From a bacterium (GTDB lineage: Bacteria; SAR324; NAC60-12): DNA of 64,000 nt. Where the stretch lies: the NCBI GenBank assembly GCA_965205865.1, contig CBDBHR010000010.1, forward strand, positions 48,710 through 112,709, read 5' to 3'. The translations under genes were made by a program, and so were the position numbers. The notes under the pieces are model-generated. The model had not been told where the DNA came from. It did no database searches and was given only the letters and a program-made list of their open reading frames with translations. Shown here piece by piece: positions 17,312 through 63,676 of the stretch; position 1 is the stretch's first letter; every line of letters starts with the position of its first letter.

Positions 17312-17669
17312 GGGGTCAGGCTTGCAAGTTTGCAAATTTAAGAAAACATTTTTAGGTTGAGTTCTTTTAACCGCTCTTGGAGATTTGTGGATTCCTTCAA
17401 TCTTTCTCTCAACTTATGTGCGCCACGACTGACAGTAGAATCATCTCGATTGAGAGCATTTGCCACTTCTCGGATTGTTGCAGATTTCCAATCGAAGACT
17501 GATAAAAGCGTCGAGAGTCGCAGTCATCGAAAAAAAAACGTTGGCCCCCATCGCCTCAACGTATCACATGATAAAGCGTACCAGAGTCGTACAAACGCGT
17601 TTTCCGAGACATCTTAGCAAATTGAAAAAGGTTAAAATTTAAAGAATACCCATTTCGTGCATGACCACC
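17312..17669 (-). mobile_element. Non-autonomous miniature element derived from a RAYT-like (Y1 HUH) transposase, copy 1
   Basis: Terminus GGGGTCAGGCTTGCAAGTTTGCAAA; MSRKTRLYDSGTLYHVIR*GDGGQRFFFDD fused to C-terminal HTH EVANALNRDDSTVSRG; other end degenerate. Confidence 0.8.
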
Positions 17670-19641: not shown

Positions 19642-21024
19642 GAGCTATAATCGAATCTGGTGTTTGAGGAATTGAAAAAAGGCGGCATATCTGGTTGACT
19701 AGAATTTTCGAATATCAATCAACCAAATAAAAAGGATATGCCACTATGGGAAAGAACAGCATTTTAGAGTTCGATAATAAAGAAAGTGTTTCAGATGTTC
19801 TGAACGAGTTGTTACGAGACGGGGCACAGCAATTAATACGTCAGGCTGTAGAAACAGAATTGAGCGAGTATTTGTCTCAGCATCAACGCATAGCCGATGA
19901 TGGAAGGCTTGCGTTGGTACGCAACGGCTACCTGCCAAAACGAGAAATCCTGACAGGTATAGGCCCAGTCAGTGTCCGCATCCCCAAGGTACGTTCAAAA
20001 GATGGGAAGGCACTGACTTTCCGTTCTGCCTTGGTTCCGCCCTATGTCAGAAAAACCAGATCCCTGGAAGCAGCATTACCATGGCTGTACCTGAAAGGTG
20101 TTTCTACCGGAGAGATGGAGGAAGCATTAAAAGTCCTGGTCGGTCATGATGCACTGGGCCTCTCAGCCAGCACTGTCTCACGCCTCAAGAGTGAATGGGC
20201 AAATGAATATCATCATTGGCGGGAGGCACCACTGGATGAAGACCGCTGGGCCTATGTCTGGGTAGATGGCATCTATTCAGGTCTTCGATCCGAGAAAGAT
20301 AAACTTTGCGCATTGGTTATCATTGGAGTCAACGAAAGAGGTCAGAAACGTTTTTTAGCCATCGAAGATGGTGTACGAGAGTCCACTCAGAGTTGGAGAG
20401 AAGTTCTGCTGAAACTCAAAAGCCGTGGCATGAATGTTCCTCAGTTAGCTATTGGTGATGGAGCCATGGGGTTTTGGGCTGCCATGGATGAAGTATATCC
20501 TCAGACACGTCATCAGCGCTGCTGGGTACACAAAACAGCTAATATCCTTAACTCTCTGCCCAAAAGCTCACAGCCTAAAGCTAAAGAGGCGATACATGAA
20601 ATCTGGCAGGCAGAGACTAAAATCAATGCGGAGAAAGCCTTTGAACTCTTCATTGAAACCTATCAGGATAAATATCCAAAGGCCACCCTTTCTCTACAGC
20701 AAGATCGTGAAGAGTTACTGGCCTTTTATGATTTCCCTGCTAAACATTGGCAGAGTATACGAACCAGCAACCCGATTGAATCCACCTTTGGTACCATAAG
20801 GCACAGAACTAAAAGATCAAAGGGCTGTCTCAATCGTGAAGGAATGCTGCACATGATGTTTAAGCTGGGACAATGCGCAGAAAAGAATTGGAGAAAGTTA
20901 CGTGGCTTTGATTACCTGGCAAAGGTGATTGAAGGTGTACAATTCTCTGATGGAATCGAGGTGATTCCTGAAATCCGGATTGCCGCTTGATTTTTAACTC
21001 AAACACCACTTTTGACAATAACTC
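19642..21024 (+). mobile_element. Complete IS256 family element (transposase 19746-20990)
   Basis: Imperfect IRs sharing TGGTGTTTGAG; 9-bp target duplication GTAAAAGGA (19633-19641, 21025-21033); WVDG, GDGAMGFW, QRCWVHK, SNPIES. Confidence 0.96.
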
Positions 21025-50880: not shown

Positions 50881-51102
50881 CTTCCACCGGGCATACGGTA
50901 TGGGCAACGGTTTCACAGAGCCTATTCCCAATTTTTTGGCTCATGCCGAAGATGGAGCGCTAAAGATTTTTTATTGCGGACCTCCATTGTTGCGCAATCC
51001 TCCTGATCCTGACTTGCTAAAGGAAATTTTTTAATCTTCCGTATTTGTTCCCCACGAAGCTTGTCCCTGCGAAAGCAGGGAGCAGGAATCCGGAGATATG
51101 CA

Positions 51103-51593
51103 GCCTGGTCTTGGGGATTGCCGGAGGCATCGGTGGCTCCAGAGTCGTCCGAAGCGCCGTGGTGGGCATTAAAGAGAATGACTATTTTCTGGCAGCCCGG
51201 GCCGTGGGCACCCCCACGACCCAAATCCTGATCCGCCATGTCCTGCCCAATATCATGGCGCCCCTCCTCATCATCTTCTCGATCAACATCGGAGGCGTCA
51301 TCATTGCCGAGGCGTCGCTGAGTTTCCTCGGATTCGGACTGCCCATCAAGGTTTCCAGCTGGGGAGGGATGCTCAGCCGGGAAGGGCTTCAGTACATGGA
51401 GATGGCCCCCCGGCTGGCGCTCTGGCCTGGTTTTGCCCTGACGATTACCGTCTACTCCCTCAACATGTTCGGCGACGCGGTGAGAGACCTGCCGGTTCCC
51501 CGGCTGAAGGGCGGTCAGGGAAGTTACGGCGCCGCGACGGGGAAACGTAAAAGAGGCTTCCTGGCCCGGCTGCTCAACCCTTTCAAATGGTGA
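51103..51593 (+). pseudogene. Peptide ABC permease (DppC-like) C-terminal half
   Basis: AARAVG, RHVLPN, AEASLSFLGFG, SWGGML, NMFGDAVRD; 5' end replaced by REP-like sequence 51047-51106. Confidence 0.8.
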
Positions 51594-51616
51594 GCGGGTA
51601 AAAATTATGGAAATAT

Positions 51617-51943: not shown

Positions 51944-52123
51944 TTAATCTGCGTTAAGATTCTTTAAAATATTTTTTGCTAATGGCTCTTTAATTTCGGT
52001 TTGTCGAGGGACAGCTTCCATCGCCCCGTCTTTTGGATTAATCCAAAGGGAGTGAGAACCTCCTTCCCGTTTAAGGTAGCAGCCTGCAATTCTCAGCCCT
52101 CGTTCCAGGTCTCTTCTTTTCAT
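51944..52123 (-). CDS. hicA: HicA family toxin, 59 aa (not in the ORF track)
   Basis: MKRRDLERGLRIAGCYLKREGGSHSLWINPKDGAMEAVPRQTEIKEPLAKNILKNLNAD; ATGA overlap with hicB. Confidence 0.85.
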   Translation of the reverse strand: MKRRDLERGLRIAGCYLKREGGSHSLWINPKDGAMEAVPRQTEIKEPLAKNILKNLNAD

Positions 52124-52338
52124 CCAATCAACACCTTGTCTTGGATAGCATCCTCTGGCAGCCCTCGGAGAATATCGGCTTTGCGGTCCTCAAAGATCAA
52201 TTCAATTGCCAGTCGTAGATTATTCTTGGTTTCTTCTATAGTTTCACCTTGTCCATTGGCTCCTGGCACTTCAAGACAGATAGCCCAGAATCCGCCTTTG
52301 GGTGCAGCTTCTATAATTGCTGTAAATTCTGCTTTCAT
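52120..52338 (-). CDS. hicB: HicB family antitoxin
   Basis: EVPGANGQGETIEE..NLRLAIEL; AGGAG RBS. Confidence 0.88.
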   Translation of the reverse strand: MKAEFTAIIEAAPKGGFWAICLEVPGANGQGETIEETKNNLRLAIELIFEDRKADILRGLPEDAIQDKVLIG

Positions 52339-52458
52339 TATAATCTCCTATTGTTTGTTTATGATCAAACGTTGTGTTCAATAGTAGCGGAAGCATGCCA
52401 CTAAAACCGAAAAAGGCCATGAGTTGCGCCTGATAGCAACCCTTTTGAAGGTCGGAAT

Positions 52459-52825
52459 GGGGTCAGGCTTGCAAGTTTGCAAATTTAAGAAAACATTTTT
52501 AGGTGGAGTTCTTTTAACCGTTCTTGGAGATTTGTGGATTCCTTCAATCTTTCTCTCAACTTATACACTCCACGACTGAAAGTTGCATCATCTCGCTTGA
52601 GAGCATTTGCCACTTCCCGGATTGTTGCAGATTTCCAATCGAAGACTGATAAAAGCGAAGAGAGTCGCTGTCATCGAAAAAATACGTTGCCCCCATTGCC
52701 TCGAAGTATCACATAATAAAGCGCACCAGGATACTACAAACGCAGTTTCAGAGACATCTTGGCAAATTGAAACGGTTAAAATTTAAAAAAATACCCCATT
52801 TTTGCAAACTTGCAAGCCTGACCCC
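52459..52825 (-). mobile_element. RAYT-derived miniature element, copy 2, with perfect 25-bp terminal inverted repeats
   Basis: GGGGTCAGGCTTGCAAGTTTGCAAA at 52459-52483 and its reverse complement at 52801-52825; YPGALYYVILRGNG remnant; same internal deletion as copy 1. Confidence 0.88.
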
Positions 52826-52839
52826 GATACTGACCCCGA

Positions 52840-53120
52840 TAAGATGCTGACTATCGGCCGAGCCTTGCTGAGACAACCGCGCTTGCTGTTGCCGGATGAA
52901 CCCCTCGGAAGGCGTGTGGGTCGGTGTGGTTTCCGAGATTGGAGACCGCTTATGCGATTTGGCCCGGTAGATGACAATCGTGATTGTTGAACAAAACATC
53001 GATCTGGGATTGCGTGTGGCTGATTTGGCCTATATAATACTCCGCGGGGAAATTGTTTTAAGTGGTTCAGCCGAGGAAATTCAAAAAGAAAATCGACTGA
53101 AGCAGTATCTGGCACCCTGA
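52840..53120 (+). pseudogene. LivF-like ABC ATPase C-terminal fragment
   Basis: MLTIGRALLRQPRLLLPDEP, IVIVEQN...GEIVLSGSAEEI. Confidence 0.75.
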
Positions 53121-53229
53121 CAACGAGGAGAAGCCGGCGATTATCTCTGGCCACGGATAGCAAATCCTTCGAATACGCGGCTTGGTGATTTCATCAGCCG
53201 TCCTTACACCATAGACCGGGGTTCATTGC

Positions 53230-54129
53230 ATGGTGAATGATAAGCAACAGTTAAGAGCAAATCATGAGCGAGAGGACATCCTCACGAAATACGCCCGTGA
53301 TGGGTACTACTTCCCCATCAAAGTACTGTCGCCTGCTGAGGCATTCGGTTATCGTAAGATGCTGGAAGCGGAAGAAAACAATGGCAAGTACGATGATCAA
53401 GAAAAAAAGTTATTGTACAAATCTCCCAATTTCGTATTACCTTTCGTTGACGAAATCACCCGACTGCCAGCGATCCTGGAACCGGTGCAAGCGATTCTTG
53501 GGCCCAACCTCCTGGTTTTTGAAACGGTCTTTTTTATCAAGGAGGCCCACACCCCCCACTTTGTGAGCTGGCATCAGGATCTCACCTACTGGGGGTTGGA
53601 TGAGCTATCAGAAGTCACTGCTTGGGTGGCGTTAACCCCTGCGACTGCGCAAAGCGGGTGCATGCAATTCGTTCCCGGCAGTCACCATAACCCGATTGGC
53701 GAACACCACGATACCTTCGAGGAAATCAATATGCTTTCGCGGGGTCAGGTACTCAGCAAAGAGGTCCGGGAGGAGGAGACCATCGATATTGTTTTGCAGC
53801 CGGGAGAACTGTCCCTGCACCATGGCAGAATGTTCCACGCCTCCCCGGCAAACCGCTCTGCAGACCGGCGTATTGGTTTGGCGATTCGCTACATTTCCCC
53901 TGAGATGAAATTGGTTTCAGGCGAAAAGCGGGTGGTGCGCTTGGTGGCCGGTGAAGACACTTTTGATCATTTTGAGAGGGCGGCTCCTCCCTCGGGAGTC
54001 ATGAGGGAAGCGGATAAAGCTGTTGCCGCCCGGAACAATCAGGTTCGCAATCGTATTAACTTTAAAGGAGCGGCGCGTCGTATCCCGGGTGCAGGGAGCC
54101 CCCTTCGCTCAACTCGAGCACGCTTTTGA
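53230..54129 (+). CDS. Phytanoyl-CoA dioxygenase (PhyH) family protein
   Basis: WHQD, PGSH, FHAS, RRIGLAIRY; last residues read into an IS630 remnant. Confidence 0.9.
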   Translation: MVNDKQQLRANHEREDILTKYARDGYYFPIKVLSPAEAFGYRKMLEAEENNGKYDDQEKKLLYKSPNFVLPFVDEITRLPAILEPVQAILGPNLLVFETVFFIKEAHTPHFVSWHQDLTYWGLDELSEVTAWVALTPATAQSGCMQFVPGSHHNPIGEHHDTFEEINMLSRGQVLSKEVREEETIDIVLQPGELSLHHGRMFHASPANRSADRRIGLAIRYISPEMKLVSGEKRVVRLVAGEDTFDHFERAAPPSGVMREADKAVAARNNQVRNRINFKGAARRIPGAGSPLRSTRARF

Positions 54130-54587
54130 AGGCGCTTCTTCGAATGCGATCTTCGCTGATCTTTGCAATAAAGCGTTTCATTTTGTTCAGCCACGAGGAG
54201 GAAGTTGGAATGAAATGCAGATGAAATCGAGGGTCTATTTTAAGCCATGCTTTCACTACGACCTGAGCGCTTTTTCCAATTTATAACATGTGACTATCAC
54301 ACCTACACTCGACTGCTGGGACCTGCCTTCATAATACCAATACTCTTCTTTTAGACCTCGCAGGCTGAGTGAGAACCACTGTTCCAGCGACGTCAAGATG
54401 ATGATTTATGAAATGTTAAAGGATTACTCGGCAATCATGAAAATTCCAGGATTGCTTGATCCGTCGCCCCAATCGATGAACCCTGTCATTCTGGGATGAA
54501 AGGCAAAATCAGAATCCCACCTGAAAAGCATTTTTCCAAACTTGCAAGCTTGACCCCCGAACAAACTTGCAAGCTTGACCCCCGAAC
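54118..54587 (-). mobile_element. Degraded IS630 fragment ending in a doubled GGGGTCA terminus (duplicate of 59958-60427)
   Basis: RFHLHFIPTSSSWLN; constant 5840-bp offset to the second copy; tandem CAAACTTGCAAGCTTGACCCC. Confidence 0.8.
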
Positions 54588-54694
54588 TAGTAGTGTATTG
54601 ACCGGTTAAAAAATTTCGAGATGATATATTTATGGGCTTGATATTTTGATTTTCCCTGCTATAATAGAGGCAACTTAACAATAAGGGAGTCAAA

Positions 54695-55159
54695 ATGAAA
54701 GCAATAAGTATCATAGAAATATACGAACGTTTCCCGAACGAGGAATCTGCACAAGATTTTTTAACAACCCTTCGCTGGGGCAACAAACCTGAATGCCCCT
54801 ACTGCCATTCCCACAAGATAGCCAGGCATCAAGAAAAGAAAAGGCGCAACAGGCTGCAATGCTGGGGTTGCAATAAGTCTTTCTCTCCTATGGTAGGCAG
54901 CATCTTCCATAAAAGCCATTTACCATTGAGAAAATGGTTTCTGGCTATTTGCCTAGTTGTCAATGCCAGGAATTCACTCTCGAATCGTCAACTTGGCCGT
55001 GATTTGGGTGTTGCTGTTCCTACTGCCTGGAGGATCGGAACAAAAATAAGGCAAGCTATGTTGAATGACCCGGCACAAAAAATGCTCTTTAAGGGTATCG
55101 TAGAAATGGATGAGACCTATATCGGGGGGATCTCCCAGAAGAGAGAACAAGAAAGATGA
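54695..55159 (+). mobile_element. IS1595 family transposase, 3'-truncated
   Basis: RW...CPYC..C..C zinc ribbon, GSIFHKSHLPLRKWF, GIVEMDETYIGG. Confidence 0.85.
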
Positions 55160-55232
55160 TGATGAGGGTTCAACCAGGGAACGTGAAACGAAAAAGCTCC
55201 TGTCCCGAAGGTGGGAACGAAGGTTCGATTCC

Positions 55233-55648
55233 TTGTTCGCCGCTTCATCGCTACTACGAACTTGTCCGACTTCCTGAAGACGTAGATATCGGGGTTATTT
55301 ATTAATTTTCCCGATCCGACTACCAATGGAATGTTGACAGTCGTCTTCAGGATCTCCCAGGTTCCGGTCAAGAAACTTCCACACATGCACCGGGTCTTTG
55401 ACTCCGCCAGGCTCAGCCGAGACTCACGCTAAGGCCTTCGGTTGATATTGCCTTCCCCACCAGACCACAAGGTCAGCGCCTGAAACTATGATTTCGGAGC
55501 TCAATACCGAGCCTATGTTCTCCCCTGTCAACGCTTAGCGCCTATCCTTGCGAATAACCACTCATGACTCGGGGACTCTGCGGGTCGTTACTGCCTTACC
55601 GAGTAAGAGACTTTCACTCTCTATTTCTTGCCAGCTTTCCTGGCGCAC
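55233..55648 (-). ncRNA. Group II intron 5' fragment (class E-like)
   Basis: Begins GTGCGCCAGG; near-identical to 62950-63465; no DV/DVI. Confidence 0.85.
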
Positions 55649-55662
55649 AGCCTGACCCCGAT

Positions 55663-56283
55663 TTAGGCTTTCGTCGCGCAGAAGTAACCTTTGGTACCGG
55701 ATTTGAAGGTGGCGCTTCGCCAACTTCCGGCAAATCCTTCTGCGGAGATTTCATGTACTTCCAACACTGTGTAGGCGCCATCGTAACGGATCAGGTCACG
55801 CTGGTTCGCGGTCGAGCCAAGCCGTAAAAGGATGCTACGCTCGCCGGTGTAGTTCCCCTCTAGTACGAGTACGCCGGGAGCCTGCGGGTCTTCACTGAGC
55901 AGACTGCCTACGCGATGTGCTCCAACCGCTTTGATATCGACGTCCGTGAATCCGTACAAAGGCGTTGATGCGCTGCCCAACGAGTCGAGTCCTTCCGGAG
56001 CATCGAGCAACGTGAGCGTGCCTTGCGCAGACCGGCCATCTGCGCCAAATGAAGGTTTTACGAGCGTCAACCGGTAACTACCGCTTCTGTCCGCCAAAGT
56101 CGCGTCCATGCTGAGGCTCCCGGAAACAGGCATACAAGCGTCTTGCTGTGAATTTCCAGTCTTGGATTCGCCTCCAACGATGGGTTTCACGAACGTCCCG
56201 CAACCCACCAGCACGGTGAGGGCAATCATGGTCAGAAATGCGCTCTTGTACCTACCCACGAGTCTCATTTTGCTACCCTTCAC
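55663..56283 (-). CDS. Hypothetical lipoprotein
   Basis: Lipobox LVGC; overlaps the upstream peptidase stop. Confidence 0.7.
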   Translation of the reverse strand: MKGSKMRLVGRYKSAFLTMIALTVLVGCGTFVKPIVGGESKTGNSQQDACMPVSGSLSMDATLADRSGSYRLTLVKPSFGADGRSAQGTLTLLDAPEGLDSLGSASTPLYGFTDVDIKAVGAHRVGSLLSEDPQAPGVLVLEGNYTGERSILLRLGSTANQRDLIRYDGAYTVLEVHEISAEGFAGSWRSATFKSGTKGYFCATKA

Positions 56284-58259
56284 TCGATTATGTCGACAAC
56301 GTTACCATCCGTATCGATCACCTGGATGGGACCTCTTATGACATCGTCGTAGTGATGAATTTGGTCTTCAGGGGCCCTTCTCGACGCAGTACCCGGGGAA
56401 GGCAGACGATACGGGTCGGCCTGAGAGACATCAACGGTATAGCCGAGATCGGCCAGAGACTGGATTGTGATCGCGCTCACCGGTTCCTCAGAACCACCTC
56501 CGCCGATTGTACTCATGATCTCGTTGCCGAAGACGGACTCCCGCCAGTGAGAGTCCCGGGAGCCGGCACCCCATTCTTCACCGTTTTCCACCGGCACCTT
56601 TTTTCCCCGGTAGTTTGCGCCGCCCGCATTGTTGAAAGCTGCAATGGCCAGTGGGCCCGAAAAATATGTGTCAGGCGCAGGATCAATCGGTTCGTAATTC
56701 TCATCGAGGGATGGATTTTGTAGAAAGCCGAATTTGTCCCAGGGAATACTACCAATCCCCAGAGCGTGTCCCATCTCATGCACGGCCGTGTCGAGAAAAT
56801 CAATCCTTGACATATCATTTATATCAGCAATGTCGAAGTGCACTATTCCCGTAACCGGCAGAAACGACTGCATCCTTACGACTCTCGTACCAGCATTTGC
56901 CCATGCGCCAGCGGGACCATCGATTTCTTCTAATTTCACCTCTATCAGCAAGTCATCGACAACGCCCAAGAAGACATAGTCACGAGTTTCATAAAACTTC
57001 GGGCTTTGCATGTCCAGCAGATCGCCTGTGATGATGGATTCCCATCTGTCAGCGGCTTGCTTGAACATCGCTCTCTGATCTGTTGTGAAAGCGCCGGTGA
57101 AAAGTAGATCGATATTGAAGTTACCCGGGTCCGATGCGCTTACCGACACTGAGATATCCTGGGATTTGTCATTCGAAGCGTTGGGATCGGTCGCTGTCAC
57201 CCTGACCGTGGCTGTTCCCTGCGAGCGCGGAATGAGTATCACCATACCGTCCGAAATCCGGGTACTTACATATCTACCATTGCTCGAAAGCGCCGTATAA
57301 TTCAGCTCTTCGGCCGGGTCGTCGAAGTAAAGCGACAAACAGGAATGCTTACTGCCCACAGTCGTCTTGAATACCGCAATTGCATCCACTTGCAGGAACA
57401 AACAATCAGGAAAGACTTCCCCCGCCATTTTTTCTACCAACACCGTGTGCCAATTCAATCCAATGTTGGAAAATCCATCGCTGCTTACGAGATCATAGGA
57501 ACCTGCGGTAGGTGAATCAAAGGTAAGATGGAAATTATAATGGAAGGGAAAATAATCAAAATTCAATTTAAGCAAACCTTCATTTTGGCCTTTTTTCGAG
57601 TAGGTATAACTCCCAGAAGACCCGCCGTCTAAGTTTGCATAAGTTATACGGAAACGGCCTTGAGGCATAATTTCAATAAGGTCCAAGTATGTTATCAAAC
57701 GTCTTCCTTCGAAAAGACGGCTGAACGCCTGCGGATCTGCCGGAGCGTGAGTGGCAGGAATATCGGTTAGCTGCCATATGCTTGAATCGCTTTCTCCTTC
57801 ATTGCAACCAAAGGTCGTGATCTTATCGGTATCCGAGGTGAAAGTGAGTTGGATTGTACAAGGGGAAGGATTGCCATTATAGAAATTCATCGTCAGTTCT
57901 CCCGTGTGCAGAACTGTTTTGGAATAGGTGTAGCTCCCTCTGTATTTTTGGCTGTCCCTGGCGTAAATGAATCGATTCTGAGACAGAAAATCGATATAAT
58001 GTTGGGCTGATGCTTGTAAACGTATGCCGGTTACGAGATTATTGAATGCATGCTGGTCTGCCGGAGCAAATGATATAGGTTCCTCATCATTGTCGCCATC
58101 ATCTGTTGGTCCAGAAGTGGTTTCCTCACCTTCGTCACCATCACCACTACCTCCGCCTCCACACCCGCCGAGCGAGACAACGATGACAAGCAGTGCGATT
58201 ACCAGAAGCTGAATTACAATTCTTACAGGTTGATCGATCGTAGTGAGTGATTTTGACAT
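56280..58259 (-). CDS. Leishmanolysin-like (M8) zinc metallopeptidase lipoprotein with Ig-like domain
   Basis: LGGC lipobox, VTATDP, HEMGHALG, SHWRESVFGNEIM, SLADLGY. Confidence 0.85.
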   Translation of the reverse strand: MSKSLTTIDQPVRIVIQLLVIALLVIVVSLGGCGGGGSGDGDEGEETTSGPTDDGDNDEEPISFAPADQHAFNNLVTGIRLQASAQHYIDFLSQNRFIYARDSQKYRGSYTYSKTVLHTGELTMNFYNGNPSPCTIQLTFTSDTDKITTFGCNEGESDSSIWQLTDIPATHAPADPQAFSRLFEGRRLITYLDLIEIMPQGRFRITYANLDGGSSGSYTYSKKGQNEGLLKLNFDYFPFHYNFHLTFDSPTAGSYDLVSSDGFSNIGLNWHTVLVEKMAGEVFPDCLFLQVDAIAVFKTTVGSKHSCLSLYFDDPAEELNYTALSSNGRYVSTRISDGMVILIPRSQGTATVRVTATDPNASNDKSQDISVSVSASDPGNFNIDLLFTGAFTTDQRAMFKQAADRWESIITGDLLDMQSPKFYETRDYVFLGVVDDLLIEVKLEEIDGPAGAWANAGTRVVRMQSFLPVTGIVHFDIADINDMSRIDFLDTAVHEMGHALGIGSIPWDKFGFLQNPSLDENYEPIDPAPDTYFSGPLAIAAFNNAGGANYRGKKVPVENGEEWGAGSRDSHWRESVFGNEIMSTIGGGGSEEPVSAITIQSLADLGYTVDVSQADPYRLPSPGTASRRAPEDQIHHYDDVIRGPIQVIDTDGNVVDIIE

Positions 58260-58516
58260 ATTTCCTCTTTTTTCCGGAGTTGCAACAGGAGGCGCTTGTA
58301 ACGGCGCCGGGTTATTGCCGACAAGACCAGGACTGAGGACACGTCCCGATTATTTATCCACTTGAAGGGAGTTACTCTGCAAGTTGGGATTAGGGATTCT
58401 TTTATTCACCGGGTGACCCGACAAATATCCAAGTCCAGTTCACTAAGAATATTCAGAAGCCGTTTGTCAAAAAAATACATGTCTACCAGATTTCCACTTT
58501 TTTGAATAGCAGATTG

Positions 58517-58660
58517 ATGTATCCAAGCGATTTAAGCGATCAGGAACGGTCTCAGTTTGAACATTTTTTTAAACGTTCCGACTCCCGGCGGGGCAAAAAT
58601 ATTCTTAGCAAACATACAATCGTCAATGCGATTTAATATGTGGTGAAAACAGGTTGTTAA
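58517..58660 (+). mobile_element. IS5 transposase N-terminal remnant
   Basis: MYPSDLSDQE...IVNAI*YVVKTGC. Confidence 0.7.
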
Positions 58661-58778
58661 GTGTGAAAACTGAAAACGATTCTAAAGATAAGGGGCATTA
58701 ATTGGGAAAAATAAAAGCGTATTAACGCCATACCAGTGTCGACATTTCAGGTAACCAATATCCTACACCATCATCCGT

Positions 58779-59786
58779 TCAACGATTCATGACGGTGATT
58801 TCATGATCTGCAACAGACTCGCCGTTTACATGCACCTCCATACGCCAAATTCCAGGAGGAACAGACACAATTATATTCCAGTACCAGTATGAATGGCGAT
58901 GCTCTTTTTGAAAGGTCACCCGTCTATCATATTCTTGTCCATTATTTCCACTACGTAAAACGACACGTAGCTCGTCACCTCTATCGCCTCCTGCTGCCGA
59001 AAGCCCTACACCCAGTGTCGAGCCCACAAAGATCGAGTCGATATTGGGTGGAGGATCCTTCACATCGTCAACTCCCGTTATCATTCCATCTTGCACGTTG
59101 TAGTCCATGAGCGTTAGCGGCCTGTCGTAGTGCGGTGGATCTCGCCACAGCTTTTCGAGAAAAGGGTCGATAACTTCTCCGCTTTTGCTTCGTAACTCGA
59201 AATGAAGATGAGGTGCTGTCGAACACCCGGAGCTACCGATGACGCCGAGTTCCTGTCCGGCTTTCACCTCTTGCCCTATCGAAATCTCGACGGAGCCTTT
59301 CTTGAGGTGGCCATAAATGGAACGCAACTCGTTCAAATGGGTTATCTCCACAAAGTTCCAGTCCCCGACACAAGATACGTTTCGATCGTATTCACCATCG
59401 TGAAGCGCAGTGATACGGCCCGCTGCTGCGGCAAGTATCGGGAAGTCGTTGTCCATCCAACGAAAGTTGGGAACATCGATGTCGACGCCATTGTGCCCAT
59501 CATATACCTTTGTACCTTCGCGGTAGTCACGAAGTCCCGGCCCGGGATCAAGATCCACATAATTGTTGATGACCCAGTCAACCCCGTCTACGCCAGGCAC
59601 GGGCCAATGAAGACGGAACGATTCAGGTTGCTGCTCTGTACCATTGTCATCACTTGTCGTCTTCTCACCATTGCCACCACTTGTCGTCTTCTCACCGTTG
59701 CCACCACCACCACACCCGGTGAGCATAGTCGAAACAAAAAAAGCGAATATCAGCAACCAAAGCGCATTATGTAAATTGTTTTTCAT
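58779..59786 (-). CDS. M23 family metallopeptidase lipoprotein
   Basis: LTGC lipobox, HNGVD, YGHL, GSSG.STAPHLHFE; duplicated GGNGEKTTS linker. Confidence 0.9.
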   Translation of the reverse strand: MKNNLHNALWLLIFAFFVSTMLTGCGGGGNGEKTTSGGNGEKTTSDDNGTEQQPESFRLHWPVPGVDGVDWVINNYVDLDPGPGLRDYREGTKVYDGHNGVDIDVPNFRWMDNDFPILAAAAGRITALHDGEYDRNVSCVGDWNFVEITHLNELRSIYGHLKKGSVEISIGQEVKAGQELGVIGSSGCSTAPHLHFELRSKSGEVIDPFLEKLWRDPPHYDRPLTLMDYNVQDGMITGVDDVKDPPPNIDSIFVGSTLGVGLSAAGGDRGDELRVVLRSGNNGQEYDRRVTFQKEHRHSYWYWNIIVSVPPGIWRMEVHVNGESVADHEITVMNR

Positions 59787-59809
59787 AAATTCCTCTTTGA
59801 TTTAGTCTA

Positions 59810-60427
59810 TTGACTTGTCAATACGTTTTAAAATTAGTCATTTGATAGACGGGTTTGAGTTTTTCAATTTTTTCTATGGCAATTTTAGTCCAGATAAAGG
59901 GTTTTGGATTACGATTGTGTGTTTCGAGAAAACTATGGAAAGCCTCGGTCGACTAAAGAACGCATTTGAAGACTCCTCTTCGAATGCGTTCTTCGCTGAT
60001 CTTTGCAATAAAGCGATTCACTTTGTTCAGCCACGAGGAGGAAGTTGGAATGAAATACAGATGAAATCGACGGTCTATTTTAAGCCATGCTTTCACTACG
60101 ACCTGCGCGCTTATTCCAATTTATAACATGTGACTGTCGCACCTACACTCGATTGGTGAGACCTACCTTCAAAATACCAATGCTCTTCTTTAAGACATCG
60201 CAGGCTGAGTGAAAACCACTGCTCCAGCGACGTCGAGTTGATAATTTATGAAATGTTAAAGGATTACTCGGCAATCTAAAAAATTCCGGGATTGCTTGAT
60301 CCGTTGCCTCAATTGATGAACCCTGTCACTCAAGGACAAAAAGCAAAATCAGAAACACACTTGAAATGCATTTTTCCAAACTTGCAAGCTTGACCCCGAA
60401 ACAAACTTGCAAGCTTGACCCCGAAAC
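59810..60427 (-). mobile_element. Degraded IS630 fragment, second copy, with doubled GGGGTCA terminus
   Basis: HNRNPKPFIWTK C-terminus; FIPTSSSWLN. Confidence 0.8.
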
Positions 60428-60484
60428 TGCCTTACCGAGTAAGAGACTTTCACTCTCTATTTCTTGCCAGCTTTCCTGGCGCAC
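60426..60484 (-). ncRNA. 59-nt 5' stub of the same group II intron
   Basis: Identical to 55590-55648. Confidence 0.8.
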
Positions 60485-60496
60485 GGCCTGACCCCA

Positions 60497-60600
60497 TTTA
60501 AGGCCGCCGTCGCTCGTGGTCTGGCCGGAGGTCTCGGTGTCCCAGTTACTGGCGGTGACGGCGCCATCGAAGTGGGTTGCCCCAACCAGGCCGCCGCTCC
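60497..60600 (-). pseudogene. GLUG-motif surface protein fragment
   Basis: GGLVG...VTASNWDTETSGQTTSDGG. Confidence 0.55.
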
Positions 60601-60694
60601 AAATGGATTTAGCCCGGCTCGTCCTTCCCAAAAGCTATGATGGATAGCCCCAAACATCTTGCGGCCTTCCTTGGAATCCTTTCTCTCTGAAGCT

Positions 60695-62344
60695 CTACGG
60701 ACGAAGGGCTGCAACTGCCTCTTCCAGCAGTATCTGATGGTACTCCAGGAAATTCTGACGCGTAACCGGGATGTAGGTATCGGGTTGTGCTGGGTTACCC
60801 TCCAGGACTTCGCCGTTTGGTCGAATTGTGTGACCAATACTCCACTGGAACTTCACCACAGGCCTTGTCGTACCTGGAAAGTAGAGTACTTCATCCTCCT
60901 CCCAAGTGTTGCTGTATCCTCCTGTGGGCACCCCCACGAAGACCCCGAGATCGTTATCGACAAGCATGGCAACGAACTGGTCCAGGTGTGAACCACCCCA
61001 GGTTCTGGCATTCATTATGGCCACCTTCCCACTGAAGTGTACAGGGGCAGGCTGGAGAATGCCGTCGGAATCCTTGGGCAGGTGGGCAAGTTTGAAGGGC
61101 ACCGGAGGGGTATATTCATCGCCGCGGCGGATCGCTTCGGTTGCATCGGTGTGCGCCCAATCGACCAACCACCTATGGCTTAGATTGAGACCGAATATGT
61201 CCGGCTCATCTGTCCTTACACTTATACGCATAAGTTCTCCAATCTTTTCCCTTCCAAGGTCGCTTAGACGGACATTACCGAATGTCGTGCGGAAAGGACG
61301 GTCAACCAACCGTTGTATCGCGTAGGCGCCGCGCGAACCGCCACTACTGTAAGTAACGTCTATGATCATGTCGTAGTCGAGTATCTGCTCCTGCTCCGCA
61401 TACTCCATCAGGTCAACGATGTCCTGGATCAGCGAGTACTCAAAGTCCAGCCATTCAAGCAAGATTATTCGCCGACTCCGGTCAAGCAGGATATTGAAAT
61501 TTTCCCTCTCCATGACCTCGACGAACCCAGGGTAGGTGTCAATTAAAGGCCAATAATAGCAGCCATTGCTATAAGGCAGCGAAACGTCGTATTGCTGACC
61601 CGACGGGCGCTCAAGGGTGAGGTTCAAGCGTTTTGAATATGAACTCAGCGGGACGCTGGCAACCTGTTTAGGCAACTCGTATGCCATTTGCCAATATAGC
61701 CCGTGAAGAGTGGAATGGTGAATCCAGGGAGCGAATTCGTCTATGTACGCCGACATTGACTGACGGTTGACGCCTACGATAATGTCACCGGGTTCCGGTG
61801 AGGACAACCCGTCACGAACTGCGGCGACAAAGAACATTGGATTCTTAATGTCCGAGTAGTCAGGAAGTACATGAATCGGTGCAGAGACGCATGGCATCCT
61901 TTCTGGGGGTTGCAAGCCGCCCTCAACCGGGCGCACCCGGAGATGTCTGTCACGCCGTGCGTTGCTGAGCTTCACTAGCGCGAAATACAGGTCCGCTTCG
62001 GTTTCGGAGGCGATGAACTCGGCACGGAGTTTCTTCATATCCTCCAGAGCGGAAAACCCTATGTTTCTTTCTTTGATCACTGAAAAGGCTTCCCGTTGTT
62101 CAGTCTTGCTAATGATCTCATCAAACAGCGGCTCCAGATATTCATCCCAATCCTTTGATGGACTATCATCTGGTGGACTATCATCACCAGCTGGTGGACT
62201 ATCATCTTGTGGACTATCATCACCAGCATTAGAACATCCATTCAAGACGCTTGCTCCCATGATGAGAGCCAGCATGAACACCATCATCAGCAAATTAATT
62301 TTCATAAACGATCCAAAAAGGATTCCCTTTTTCTTAATAGACAT
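60695..62344 (-). CDS. S41 peptidase-like lipoprotein with PDZ-like segment
   Basis: LNGC lipobox, DDSP repeats, PGDIIVGVN, IIDVTYSSGG, GVPTGG, EGNPAQPD. Confidence 0.7.
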   Translation of the reverse strand: MSIKKKGILFGSFMKINLLMMVFMLALIMGASVLNGCSNAGDDSPQDDSPPAGDDSPPDDSPSKDWDEYLEPLFDEIISKTEQREAFSVIKERNIGFSALEDMKKLRAEFIASETEADLYFALVKLSNARRDRHLRVRPVEGGLQPPERMPCVSAPIHVLPDYSDIKNPMFFVAAVRDGLSSPEPGDIIVGVNRQSMSAYIDEFAPWIHHSTLHGLYWQMAYELPKQVASVPLSSYSKRLNLTLERPSGQQYDVSLPYSNGCYYWPLIDTYPGFVEVMERENFNILLDRSRRIILLEWLDFEYSLIQDIVDLMEYAEQEQILDYDMIIDVTYSSGGSRGAYAIQRLVDRPFRTTFGNVRLSDLGREKIGELMRISVRTDEPDIFGLNLSHRWLVDWAHTDATEAIRRGDEYTPPVPFKLAHLPKDSDGILQPAPVHFSGKVAIMNARTWGGSHLDQFVAMLVDNDLGVFVGVPTGGYSNTWEEDEVLYFPGTTRPVVKFQWSIGHTIRPNGEVLEGNPAQPDTYIPVTRQNFLEYHQILLEEAVAALRP

Positions 62345-62718
62345 AACTTCTCCTTATCTTATTCAGGTTGAAGGAATTAATTAGAAAGGGGTCAGGCCTT
62401 GATTAAATGAAAAAGGGGCAAAAAAACTGGACTCGTTCCTAATCAAATAATCAAAGTCACCGTAAAGAACTGACTTATAGTGGTTTCCAGCCACCTTTCG
62501 TCATTCCTCCGGTACAGATCCGGACGTGCGCTGCTAACGCATCCGGCTCCTGCTTCGAGTCAGACGCTCAAACGTTGCCGTTTGGCGCACCCTGCTTAAA
62601 CCGCTCTCTGATTTTACCGGCCTCTGAGTTCCGAACACAGGAGGGCAAGCAGAATTCCTCTCAGCCAAGTCCCTTTGCTCCACAGGCTCCGTTGATTTCC
62701 TTTGCATTGTTACTTTTA

Positions 62719-62925
62719 CCTAAATTGAGCGATTCTATAAAAGAATCAGATTATTATGACGCTATATTCCCCGTCAGACCGGTCAAACTCTTGTATATTT
62801 CCCATAAAGCTCTCTACCCGTTGGGTTGTGCTCGATTCTATCGAAACAACAGTATTACTCACTGATATAAAATACTTTTTCTCCACGAGTAATAGATTTT
62901 TTTGTCATGAATCGCTCAATTTAGG
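62719..62925 (-). mobile_element. 207-bp IS1380-derived MITE
   Basis: Perfect 17-bp IR CCTAAATTGAGCGATTC; TTTTA target duplication; retains the transposase start region CACAACCCAAC.GGTAGAGAGCTTTATGGGAAA. Confidence 0.92.
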
Positions 62926-62981
62926 TTTTACTCTCTACAAATAATCTCATTGTTCGCCGCTTCATCGCTACTACGAACTTG

Positions 62982-63138
62982 TCCGACTTCCTGAAGAAGT
63001 AGATATCGGGGTTATTTATTAATTTTCCCGATCCGACTTCCTGAAGAAGTAGATATCGGGGTTATTTATTAATTTTCCCGATCCGACTTCCTGAAGAAGT
63101 AGATATCGGGGTTATTTATTAATTTTCCCGATCCGACT
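62982..63138. repeat. 3x 50-bp tandem repeat inside the intron
   Basis: Units start at 62982, 63032, 63082; single unit in the 55.2-kb copy. Confidence 0.95.
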
Positions 63139-63481
63139 ACCAATAGAATGTTGACAGTCGTCTTCAGGATCTCCCAGGTTCCGATCAAGAAACTTCCACA
63201 CATGCGCCGGGTCTTTGACTCCGCCAGGCTCAGCCGAGACTCACGCTAAGGCCTTCGGTTGATATTGCCTTCCCCACCAGACCACAAGGTCAGCGCCTGA
63301 AACTATGATTTCGGAGCTCAATACCGAGCCTATGTTCTCCCCTGTCAACGCTTAGCGCCTATCCTTGCGAATAACCACTCATGACTCGGGGACTCGGCGG
63401 GTCGTTACTGCCTTACCGAGTAAGAGACTTTCACTCTCTATTTCTTGCCAGCTTGCCTGGCGCACGGCCTGACCCCTTTTT

Positions 63482-63676
63482 TGGCAGAATAGTAAACAAC
63501 GGCAACGCTGGGTGGCCACTGCTTTATTGGAGATTGAAGGCAATCTCAGAAGAGTGAAGGGCTATAAACATCTCGCTCAGCTCAGAGAGGCTATGGCATA
63601 TTTGTCTCTAATGAAGAAAAAGAAAAAAGTAGCTTGAGTGTCATCAAAAAATTTCAACTAGAATTGGGATTGACCC
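63482..63676 (+). mobile_element. IS256 family 3' remnant with right IR
   Basis: WQNSKQRQRWVATALLEIEGNLRRVKGYKHL; AATTTCAACTAGAATTGGGATTGACCC. Confidence 0.75.

Follow-up and report, generated by a model that had tools for sequence, protein, structure and literature searches.

Among the relatives of the REP-associated tyrosine transposases (RAYTs; REP, repetitive extragenic palindromic sequence), the TIRYTs are encoded by elements, the TIRtrons, with terminal inverted repeats (TIRs), for which the published accounts give the shared sequence GGGGWSAS (Di Nocera, De Gregorio and Rocco 2013, PMC3733652) and, for the TIRYT-type subclass 2.1 of Quentin et al. 2018, the consensus GGGG[AT][CG]A[CG] (PMC6006769). 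These accounts describe TIRYTs as possibly "less productive players than RAYTs" and their TIR families as only moderately abundant (PMC3733652 and PMC6006769). Here, we analyzed a window of 64,000 nucleotides (the whole stretch of DNA under study) from a SAR324 bacterium (contig CBDBHR010000010.1 of assembly GCA_965205865.1), in which a motif headed by GGGGTCA recurs between 52.4 and 63.5 kb. The original prediction took its copies for stacked, co-oriented RAYT-type termini that collect passenger DNA. We consider it probable that GGGGTCAGGCY is the tip of TIRYT/TIRtron elements and their miniature derivatives and also the homing site of a group II intron and that the span is a pile-up of decayed mobile DNA.

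As in the described TIRYT/TIRtrons, the Y1 HUH protein of the elements found here is RAYT-like and carries a helix-turn-helix (HTH) domain of the Bac_DnaA_C type at its C terminus, the flanking TIRs are long and fit GGGGWSAS at their outer ends, and TIR copies are single, paired, or grouped. The elements differ from the published descriptions in that the genome has 15 Y1_Tnp matches, several diverged lineages, and ~124 free ends, as well as amplified deletion derivatives of 52 to 462 bp, 20 terminal tandem duplications, and an intron in the ends.

Introns that home into mobile elements have also been described. The group II intron RmInt1 homes into the insertion sequence (IS) ISRm2011-2. According to their published descriptions, the F4 group II introns of T. 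elongatus home to a conserved site in the IS200-family element ISEL1 (PMC2882425), and only two of the nine intron copies in P. putida are REP associated (PMC1525189). Like the IS-homing introns, the intron here multiplies by way of a multicopy mobile element that makes a harmless target, and copies without an open reading frame (ORF) outnumber ORF-bearing ones. However, those introns use an internal site of one IS, whereas the intron reported here occupies the 11- to 12-nt tip of many otherwise unrelated TIR families and of miniature inverted-repeat transposable elements (MITEs) and so splits the transposon's own recognition end.

The genome under study (G000) is a 4.74-Mb draft assembly in 30 contigs (C-numbers below), with a completeness of 91.9% and a contamination of 3.7%. 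It was compared with a closed, single-contig sister genome (G001) and with a genome of a different genus (G008), and the window was compared with contigs from public sequencing runs (X-numbered; X4 and X6 are from other studies).

The motif heads many repeat families

TGACCCC was found at all 11 positions claimed for it, on the plus strand at 52819, 52831, 54551, 54576, 55653, 60391, 60416, 60489, and 63470 and inverted at 52459 and 62388. Two unlisted 7-mers in the span, one inside the phytanoyl-CoA dioxygenase (PhyH) ORF (53741, minus strand) and one at 63671 (plus strand), lack the extended motif, and site 52831 is an 8-nt partial copy only. The bare 7-mer is weakly enriched (18 in the window versus 9.0 +/- 3.4 in 100 shuffles of the 64-kb window, 2 of which reach 18), whereas the extended form GGGGTCARGCY is strongly enriched (11 versus 0.13 +/- 0.37 expected; none of the 100 shuffles reaches 11), and 10 of its 11 window copies fall in 52459 to 63476. 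In the whole 4.74-Mb genome, GGGGTCA[AG]GC occurs 176 times versus ~15 expected from base composition. The 164 sites matching GGGGTCA[AG]GC[CT] consist of 124 TIR-like sites, 24 sites with the intron behind them, and 16 unrelated sites. Sorting of the genomic copies by the sequence behind them showed that the 11-mer heads many different repeat families, and short elements carry it at both ends in inverted orientation.

Intact elements place the motif in the TIRYT/TIRtron family

The description of the motif copies as RAYT-type termini was right in that they are ends of a RAYT-related Y1 (HUH) transposon family, which is more exactly TIRYT/TIRtron. It had also been noted that the window holds no intact transposase, and indeed none of the 15 Y1_Tnp matches above the cutoff in G000 is on the window's contig. 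Intact TIR-bounded elements of 1033 to 1206 bp occur elsewhere in the genome (Table 1), each with one ORF of ~310 to 330 amino acids (aa) that matched Pfam Y1_Tnp in three genomic copies (E = 3e-14 to 4e-12). The TIRYT proteins also gave Bac_DnaA_C matches (E = 8.5e-8 and 1.5e-8), and H60-x-H62 and Y102 (the tyrosine in GHLFQGRY) do not vary among 14 homologues in an alignment that included 11 database homologues. The profile of this alignment matched DnaA domain IV structures at the C terminus (E = 3e-9) and TnpAREP (4er8) at only E = 0.022; phmmer with a single TIRYT protein returned no match in the PDB. The architecture of Y1_Tnp plus Bac_DnaA_C is very common (4234 of 5833 candidate proteins at E <= 0.001, many on contigs of ~1 to 1.3 kb). 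The TIRs of the intact elements begin with GGGGTCAGGCY, GGGGTCAG fits both published forms of the TIR consensus, and several diverged TIRYT lineages in G000 keep the same tip. The motif family of the window is TIRYT/TIRtron, which has already been described, and neither the motif nor the enzyme is new. The TIRYT enzyme would presumably bind or cut its own TIRs; the tip kept by diverged lineages and the 25-nt indel polymorphism at one doubled end (see below) are indirect evidence for this.

A second dense cluster of the family, at C29:717000-747000, contains five open 335-aa TIRYT frames (within ~25 kb) and four intron copies in ~30 kb. In C30, an ORF for a DUF6602 protein (343 aa) was identified between two inverted TIRYT-type ends (locus L004, C30:62597-64089), and around it (C30:60000-68000) there are ten ends of one family in 8 kb, including a 52-bp back-to-back TIR pair. 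This unit is possibly a cargo-carrying element, or a solo end and the 52-bp MITE may simply happen to flank a gene.

The REP/REPIN-RAYT systems have in common with this family a related Y1 enzyme and short non-autonomous repeats that occur in inverted pairs, are often intergenic, and reach a high copy number. The ends could be domesticated REP-like intergenic elements, terminators or mRNA stabilizers, the place of which after stop codons reflects function and not mobility. Most REPs are reported to follow coding regions (PMC3733652), and several ends in the window do lie just downstream of same-strand ORFs (3 nt past the stop codon at 55660 to 55662 and after the upstream region of the 549-aa ORF). 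However, the units here are TIR bounded and belong to many lineages with multiple intact transposases, such as the five frames in C29; the single tip is not palindromic; many copies lie inside other mobile elements; and the TIRYT protein reaches 70.8 bits with the NCBIfam model REP_Tyr_transpos, below the cutoff of 80. The family also differs from REP/REPIN-RAYT in having no GTAG tag or self-complementary REP and in its multicopy (15 Y1_Tnp), rather than single, transposase gene. We therefore regard a REP-like role as very improbable.

A group II intron sits between TIR nucleotides 11 and 12

The motif sites in the window are of three kinds, namely, true TIRYT/TIRtron ends, tandem partial duplicates of such ends, and 11-nt stubs on a group II intron (n = 3). 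The intron starts with GUGCG directly after GGGGTCAGGC(C/U) at 63465, 55648, and 60484, so that what remains at the sites 55653, 60489, and 63470 is an 11-nt tip on the intron 5' end. In the most complete window copy, Rfam RF02005 (group-II-D1D4-6; gathering score, 49 bits) matched at 63209 to 63431 (minus strand) with 163.7 bits, and RF00029 (domain V/VI) matched at 62456 to 62551 with 31 bits, below its gathering score of 40.

A BLAST search of G000 with the window copy yielded 40 5' junctions and 36 3' junctions. The 5' exon ends with CAGGCU in 15 copies and with CAGGCC in 10, and eight more, offset by one position at extraction, also end with ...CAGGCY. Among the 31 copies with both junctions, the +1 nucleotide is T in 28. 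For 22 of the 31 (one of the 22 being a tandem intron), an uninterrupted tip elsewhere is directly followed by the 9 nt with which the 3' exon begins, and for 10 of the 31 the exact rebuilt 22-mer exists uninterrupted elsewhere in G000. The 3' exons come from at least six TIR families (TTTGATTA..., TGCAAGTTTG..., TGAAAGTTTG..., TGCATA..., TGTGACTTTG..., and TGCGAGTTTG...). Whatever the family, the intron sits between TIR nucleotides 11 and 12.

Most intron copies lack an ORF and are ~690 nt long, and about five have an insert of ~1265 bp. In locus L005, this insert encodes a 470-aa group II reverse transcriptase/maturase (L005:1635-3047, minus strand; TIGR04416 [group_II_RT_mat], 342.7 bits against a cutoff of 300; RVT_1, E = 7.9e-37), with no nuclease family among its profile matches. 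The intron-encoded protein is absent from the three window copies, and the ORF-less copies are probably mobilized in trans. Like other endonuclease-less group II introns, this one would use replication forks for insertion. The intron lineage was found in 3 of the 64 genomes of the order, and an exact 28-nt intron pattern searched across genome contigs matched in G001 only, at 4 loci.

The intron copy at 62456 to 63465 carries two features that other intron copies lack: a foreign 218-nt insert (~62710 to 62927) with perfect 18-nt inverted repeats, i.e., another type of MITE, and three tandem copies of a 50-nt intron segment (62947 to 63141). Contigs of four public runs skip the 218-nt insert, but these possibly represent other intron copies. 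The copy at C28:263299-264205 and five other intron copies share an extra insert of ~835 to 910 bp at the same place in domain I, the ORFs of which encode no obvious protein.

EBS1 changes together with its target

Exon-binding site 1 (EBS1) was located as the 9-nt terminal loop of a domain I hairpin in the Rfam consensus structure. Of the G000 copies, 20 have the loop GU-GGUCUG-G and 10 have AGUCUG in it, and this RGUCUG pairs with CAGGCY. The G opposite position -1 accepts both C and U, which accounts for the Y at TIR position 11. In G001 the loop has AGCCUG, with which the CAGGCU of one copy pairs perfectly, and in G008 it has UGGCUG, facing 5' exons that end with CAGCCA in two copies and with CAACCA in one. 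A comparison of G001 with G008 shows two-sided, compensatory changes of the predicted EBS1 and its target at positions -1 (U:A to A:U) and -3 (G:C to C:G).

An earlier candidate for EBS1, GGAGCCUGUGG, located ~520 nt into the intron, seemed compensatory between G000 and G001, but it fails in G008 and falls in the first codons of the intron-encoded protein ORF, and it was dropped.

The span is a mosaic of truncated elements

The features of the span are listed in Table 1. Two pairs of motif sites (52459/52825 and 62388/63476) are the two ends of ordinary small elements. Three of the 11 sites are tandem duplicates, and the tandem doubling noted in the original prediction is real, with a 12-nt unit present twice at 52814 to 52837 and 25-nt units present twice at 54537 to 54586 and at 60377 to 60426.

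Table 1. Features of the 52.4- to 63.5-kb span (window coordinates) and intact TIRYT elements elsewhere in G000
Feature	Coordinates	Strand	Remarks
TIR-bounded non-autonomous element, 367 bp	52459..52825	.	Perfect 25-nt inverted repeat GGGGTCAGGCTTGCAAGTTTGCAAA; short ORF fragments only
Tandem duplication, 12 nt	52814..52837	-	CTGACCCCGATA twice: first 8 nt of the end plus 4 nt outside
livF-type ABC ATPase, 3' fragment (pseudogene)	52840..53128	+	In-frame stops; no other copy in G000
Phytanoyl-CoA dioxygenase family ORF, intact	53230..54129	+	Pfam PhyH, E = 1.2e-28
IS630-family transposase pseudogene fragment (54103-54256), unique sequence, and inner part of solo TIR element	54103..54536	-	
Solo TIRYT-type end, doubled	54537..54586	-	25-nt unit (terminus plus 4 outside nt) twice
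IS1595-family element, truncated 5' part	54587..55226	+	ORF 54695-55159; Zn_ribbon_IS1595, E = 1.6e-9
Group II intron copy without 3' part	55230..55648	-	RF02005, 157.6 bits at 55392-55614 (minus strand); EBS1 loop 55460-55468
TIR tip, 11 nt	55649..55659	-	GGGGTCAGGCT; 5' exon of intron 55230-55648; 3 nt from stop codon of ORF 55663-56283
Two passenger ORFs, 206 aa (no family) and 659 aa (leishmanolysin/M8-like)	55663..58259	-	Peptidase_M8, E = 1.6e-7
M23 peptidase ORF	58779..59786	-	Pfam Peptidase_M23, E = 2.6e-19
Second copy of IS630 fragment and inner TIR-element part	59803..60376	-	90% identical to first copy
Second solo end, doubled	60377..60426	-	25-nt unit twice
Stub of intron 5' end, ~58 nt	60427..60484	-	BLAST, 97% identical to intron nt 1-59
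TIR tip, 11 nt	60485..60495	-	GGGGTCAGGCC; 5' exon of intron stub
ORF of 549 aa, no family	60695..62344	-	
Larger part of ~80-bp MITE	62388..62455	.	Continues the 3' exon TTTGATTATTTGATTAGG of the intron; other tip 63466-63476
ORF-less group II intron in the TIR of the MITE	62456..63465	-	Between nt 11 and 12; EBS1 loop 63277-63285
TIR tip, 11 nt	63466..63476	-	GGGGTCAGGCC; intron 5' exon and opposite end of MITE
Intact TIRYT elements	C29:722036-723083, C4:25432-26464, C26:138254-139459		Bounded by inverted GGGGTCAGGC...; TIRYT protein of the C29 element, 313 aa

Nucleotides 1 to 186 and 187 to 367 of the 367-bp element align at 93% with nucleotides 1033 to 848 and 183 to 1 of the 1033-bp element C4:25432-26464, so that ~664 bp are missing and the element is an internal-deletion derivative. 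The derivative has itself been amplified, with ~20 copies or parts in G000. A second copy in the window, at 17312 to 17655, is 90% identical over nucleotides 1 to 343 and lacks the far end, making another solo end. The ~80-bp MITE, split in the window by the intron, occurs uninterrupted at C27:50737-50816 and at further sites in G000.

The two doubled solo ends sit on two 90%-identical copies of one fragment. In the first copy, the IS630 piece (54103 to 54256) is 84% identical to ~20 loci, one of which is inside a 376-aa DDE_3 ORF, and 54445 to 54561 is 76% identical to a 187-bp MITE at C30:1323488-1323674. The IS630 piece is longer in the second copy (294 nt) than in the first (154 nt), and the precise doubled end is the same in both. 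No further copy of the IS1595 fragment was found in G000.

According to the original prediction, nearly every copy of the motif marks an abrupt boundary between unrelated sequences, and this held for several of the boundaries named. The motif does border the livF stub (52840 to 53128, which matches at 92% identity the 3' portion of an intact livF ORF of 241 aa in G001, L015 2834-3556), the IS1595 fragment identified by Zn_ribbon_IS1595, and two truncated intron copies, and only 3 nt separate it from the stop codon of the 206-aa ORF, called a lipoprotein gene. The stubs labeled IS256 and GLUG have no Pfam match by which to recognize them; for these labels and a third, IS5, Pfam gave nothing or a chance match under the cutoff. 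None of the 10 Transposase_mut loci of G000 adjoins the three loci that resemble 63499 to 63676. Elsewhere in the window (19785 to 20894) lies an intact IS256-family transposase gene with a 419-aa open frame (Transposase_mut, 238.8 bits).

The PhyH ORF is 88% identical to a G001 gene located 3.1 Mb from livF there, and the 659-aa and 549-aa proteins had matches in none of 20 relatives. Paralogues of the 206-aa ORF were considered as an empty site, but their 3' ends diverge. Synteny with G001 stops near 50.2 kb. We read the 52.4- to 63.5-kb span as a species-specific accessory segment, dense in mobile elements, that many events have built up and eroded.

Two ORFs lie at 51944 to 52338 (minus strand), immediately upstream of the 367-bp element: one for a HicA toxin (59 aa, Pfam E = 2.5e-7) and one of 72 aa with a weak UPF0150-like match (E = 0.011, under the Pfam cutoff), possibly of the HicB type; 51975 to 52389 is 92% identical to a non-syntenic place in G001, compared with ~80% for syntenic genes. 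Farther upstream, an ABC-transporter permease fragment (BPD_transp_1, ORF 51045-51593; 50933 to 51603) belongs to a DNA-level repeat family with up to 112 overlapping matches in G000 and, at 80 to 90% identity, at least 40 loci in G001, an unusually large number of near-identical permease genes.

Gene accretion and misassembly as alternative explanations

In the original prediction, the co-oriented ends were taken for active sites of one-ended transposition or recombination by an HUH enzyme that capture modules (livF, PhyH, peptidase, and others) serially, as do IS91/ISCR elements or attC sites. IS91/ISCR elements have Y2 enzymes, their ori and ter ends differ from each other, and they insert next to a fixed tetranucleotide. 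The present family shares with them HUH chemistry and solo ends beside foreign DNA, but it has a Y1 enzyme and symmetrical inverted-repeat ends, and a search of G000 found no outward flank repeated together with an end, larger duplications aside, i.e., no transduced flank. The ten Y2_Tnp matches of G000 include none on the window's contig or adjoining TIR-like motif sites. As to the comparison with attC arrays, the repeats of the span are TIRs of transposons and junctions of the intron.

The borders and the orientation of the ends bear on this idea as well. At least six module borders defined by the G001 comparison and the repeat map have no motif (53128/53129, 54102/54103, ~55226/55227, 58303/58304, 58657/58658, and 59802/59803). 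Three of the "ends" are stubs of intron 5' exons, and another five sites are duplicates. After tandem duplicates and paired elements are removed, four solo ends are left, namely, two intron stubs and one end on each copy of the repeated fragment; that all four are on one strand would happen by chance about once in 8 by simple arithmetic and is not significant. The stacked, co-oriented ends proved to be heterogeneous sites, and the proposal that they collect passenger DNA was not supported.

Several findings nevertheless fit one-ended events. Half of all ends in G000 are solo (74 of 148). In the window and likewise at C29:695495, ends adjoin genes that are truncated and introns that lack their 3' part. 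The two copies of the IS630-containing fragment, with the same precise doubled end and different inner extents, have the signature expected of one-ended events, the 659-aa and 549-aa passenger genes are unmatched in the relatives, and synteny with G001 is lost near 50.2 kb. The DUF6602 unit described above, with an ORF between TIRs, would also fit, unless it is a gene flanked by a solo end and a MITE. Because of the solo ends, truncated neighbors, and unmatched passengers, a weaker version, in which the ends are rearrangement prone, stays alive, whereas serial capture of modules by the ends seems to us improbable.

The ten Y2_Tnp matches, which are above the cutoff, represent the IS91 family (C28:374165, C1:774, C8:5964, and others); this family gave no match in any of the 14 control genomes.

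With ~40 intron copies and >100 ends in a 30-contig draft, repeats might also have joined unrelated pieces during assembly. Every module border is at or near a repeat, and public-run contigs break at repeats. However, contigs of run X2 cross 54182 to 54959 (including 54586/54587) and 58138 to 60051 without differences, although X2 may be the source sample, in which case it is not independent; contigs of X4 and X6 cover adjoining junctions; and the closed, single-contig G001 shows the same kinds of junction. An assembly artefact is unlikely, although individual junctions could be affected, and as an explanation of the whole array we give it hardly any credence. Some stretches of the span are not covered in runs X1, X4, or X6. 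Three joints seen in public contigs, X4 52825->58780 (4 letters between, depth 2), X6 51511->52459, and X6 52733->62455, all involve repeats, with low depth or short sides, and are not assignable to the locus.

Terminal duplications and the transposition reaction

The five positions outside GGGG are not random, with G/A at -5 (0.82), A at -4, -3, and -2 (0.62 to 0.74), and any base at -1, and C is absent (0.00) at -4 and -3. This R-A-A-A-N pattern is found at both ends in inverted orientation. No direct-repeat target duplication was found beside the elements of G000. The element either starts at R-A-A-A-N or inserts into a symmetrical target.

IS608, of the IS200/IS605 family, has tetranucleotides as its cleavage and target sites. 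Like that family, the elements here combine a Y1 HUH core with no target duplication seen so far and a short conserved sequence (R-A-A-A-N) just outside the ends. IS200/IS605 elements differ in having no TIRs, a different subterminal hairpin at each end, and no HTH domain.

Twenty ends in G000 have a tandem duplication of 11 to 25 nt, which always extends from four outside bases to 7 to 21 nt inside the tip. A contig of run X4 has a 25-nt gap at 60377 to 60426, i.e., a single unit, indicating an indel polymorphism at the doubled end. These terminal duplications may be footprints of strand transfer. Nested insertion was considered as their origin, but the remainder of a "resident" end was not found beyond the element.

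A further possibility, which we regard as doubtful, is that TIRYT ends are hot one-sided reaction sites, at which repeated nicking at R-A-A-A-N|GGGG would yield duplications, solo ends, truncations, and occasional moves of neighboring DNA. The intron, a parasite of the transposon that would have coevolved with the 11-nt tip, would split and might disable the end, and both would drive the turnover of accessory islands.

Discussion

Our preferred explanation is that TIRYT ends and intron junctions accumulated in the span as decayed mobile DNA. The sequences show the element family, the intron with its insertion site, the covariation of EBS1, and the mosaic build of the span. The transposase of the TIRYT elements, which in this genome are many and of several diverged lineages, is a Y1 HUH tyrosine enzyme whose HTH resembles DnaA domain IV. 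The intron would home to their tip through pairing of EBS1 with CAGGCY and insert between TIR nucleotides 11 and 12, so that each insertion would leave an 11-nt tip fused to the intron 5' end. TIRYT elements and MITEs, together with the intron and with fragments of IS630, IS1595, and other kinds, would have inserted into and beside one another and would later have been truncated through deletion or recombination, in events the order and nature of which we infer.

Several points weigh against this explanation. Simple insertion followed by random decay does not predict that half of the ends are solo or that several of them adjoin truncated genes. No empty site that would show the insertion chemistry of TIRYT (target-site duplication and element limits) was recovered: in G000, the 70-nt flanks on both sides of all plus/minus end pairs up to 4 kb apart were joined, and no match spanned the junction, while in G001 none of the sites corresponding to four MITEs was clean, one flank of each being a multicopy repeat that begins beside the MITE. 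Regarding target recognition, the covariation of EBS1 comes from three genomes only; the CUGGCU of the three intron copies within one G001 repeat makes one U-U mismatch with EBS1; and we were not able to locate EBS2. Of the two candidates examined for it, ACCCC in AAUAACCCCGAU does not vary even though G008 has a different target, and GACCC/GUCCC near nucleotide 78 covaries at position -7 but is partly in a stem; neither was accepted. Finally, independent contigs bridge only some of the junctions of the 30-contig draft.

In the literature searched, we found no account that pairs a group II intron with a REP-associated tyrosine transposase or with miniature inverted-repeat elements and retrohoming. 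Within that literature, an intron specialized on a tip common to many TIRYT families and the terminal duplications appear to be undescribed, and TIRYT elements themselves are little studied and rarely named. For annotation, the lesson is that such motif "arrays" are explicable by element ends and intron junctions, without a new gene-capture system.

Together, G000 and its sister genome offer material for work on the TIRYT mechanism, including intact transposases, related ends that share an 11-nt tip, miniature derivatives, the R-A-A-A-N sequence, and duplications that resemble reaction footprints. The intron provides a clean example from nature of how base pairing can tune a retroelement to the conserved end of a DNA transposon, and the intron-TIRYT pair could serve to test competition or cooperation between mobile elements.

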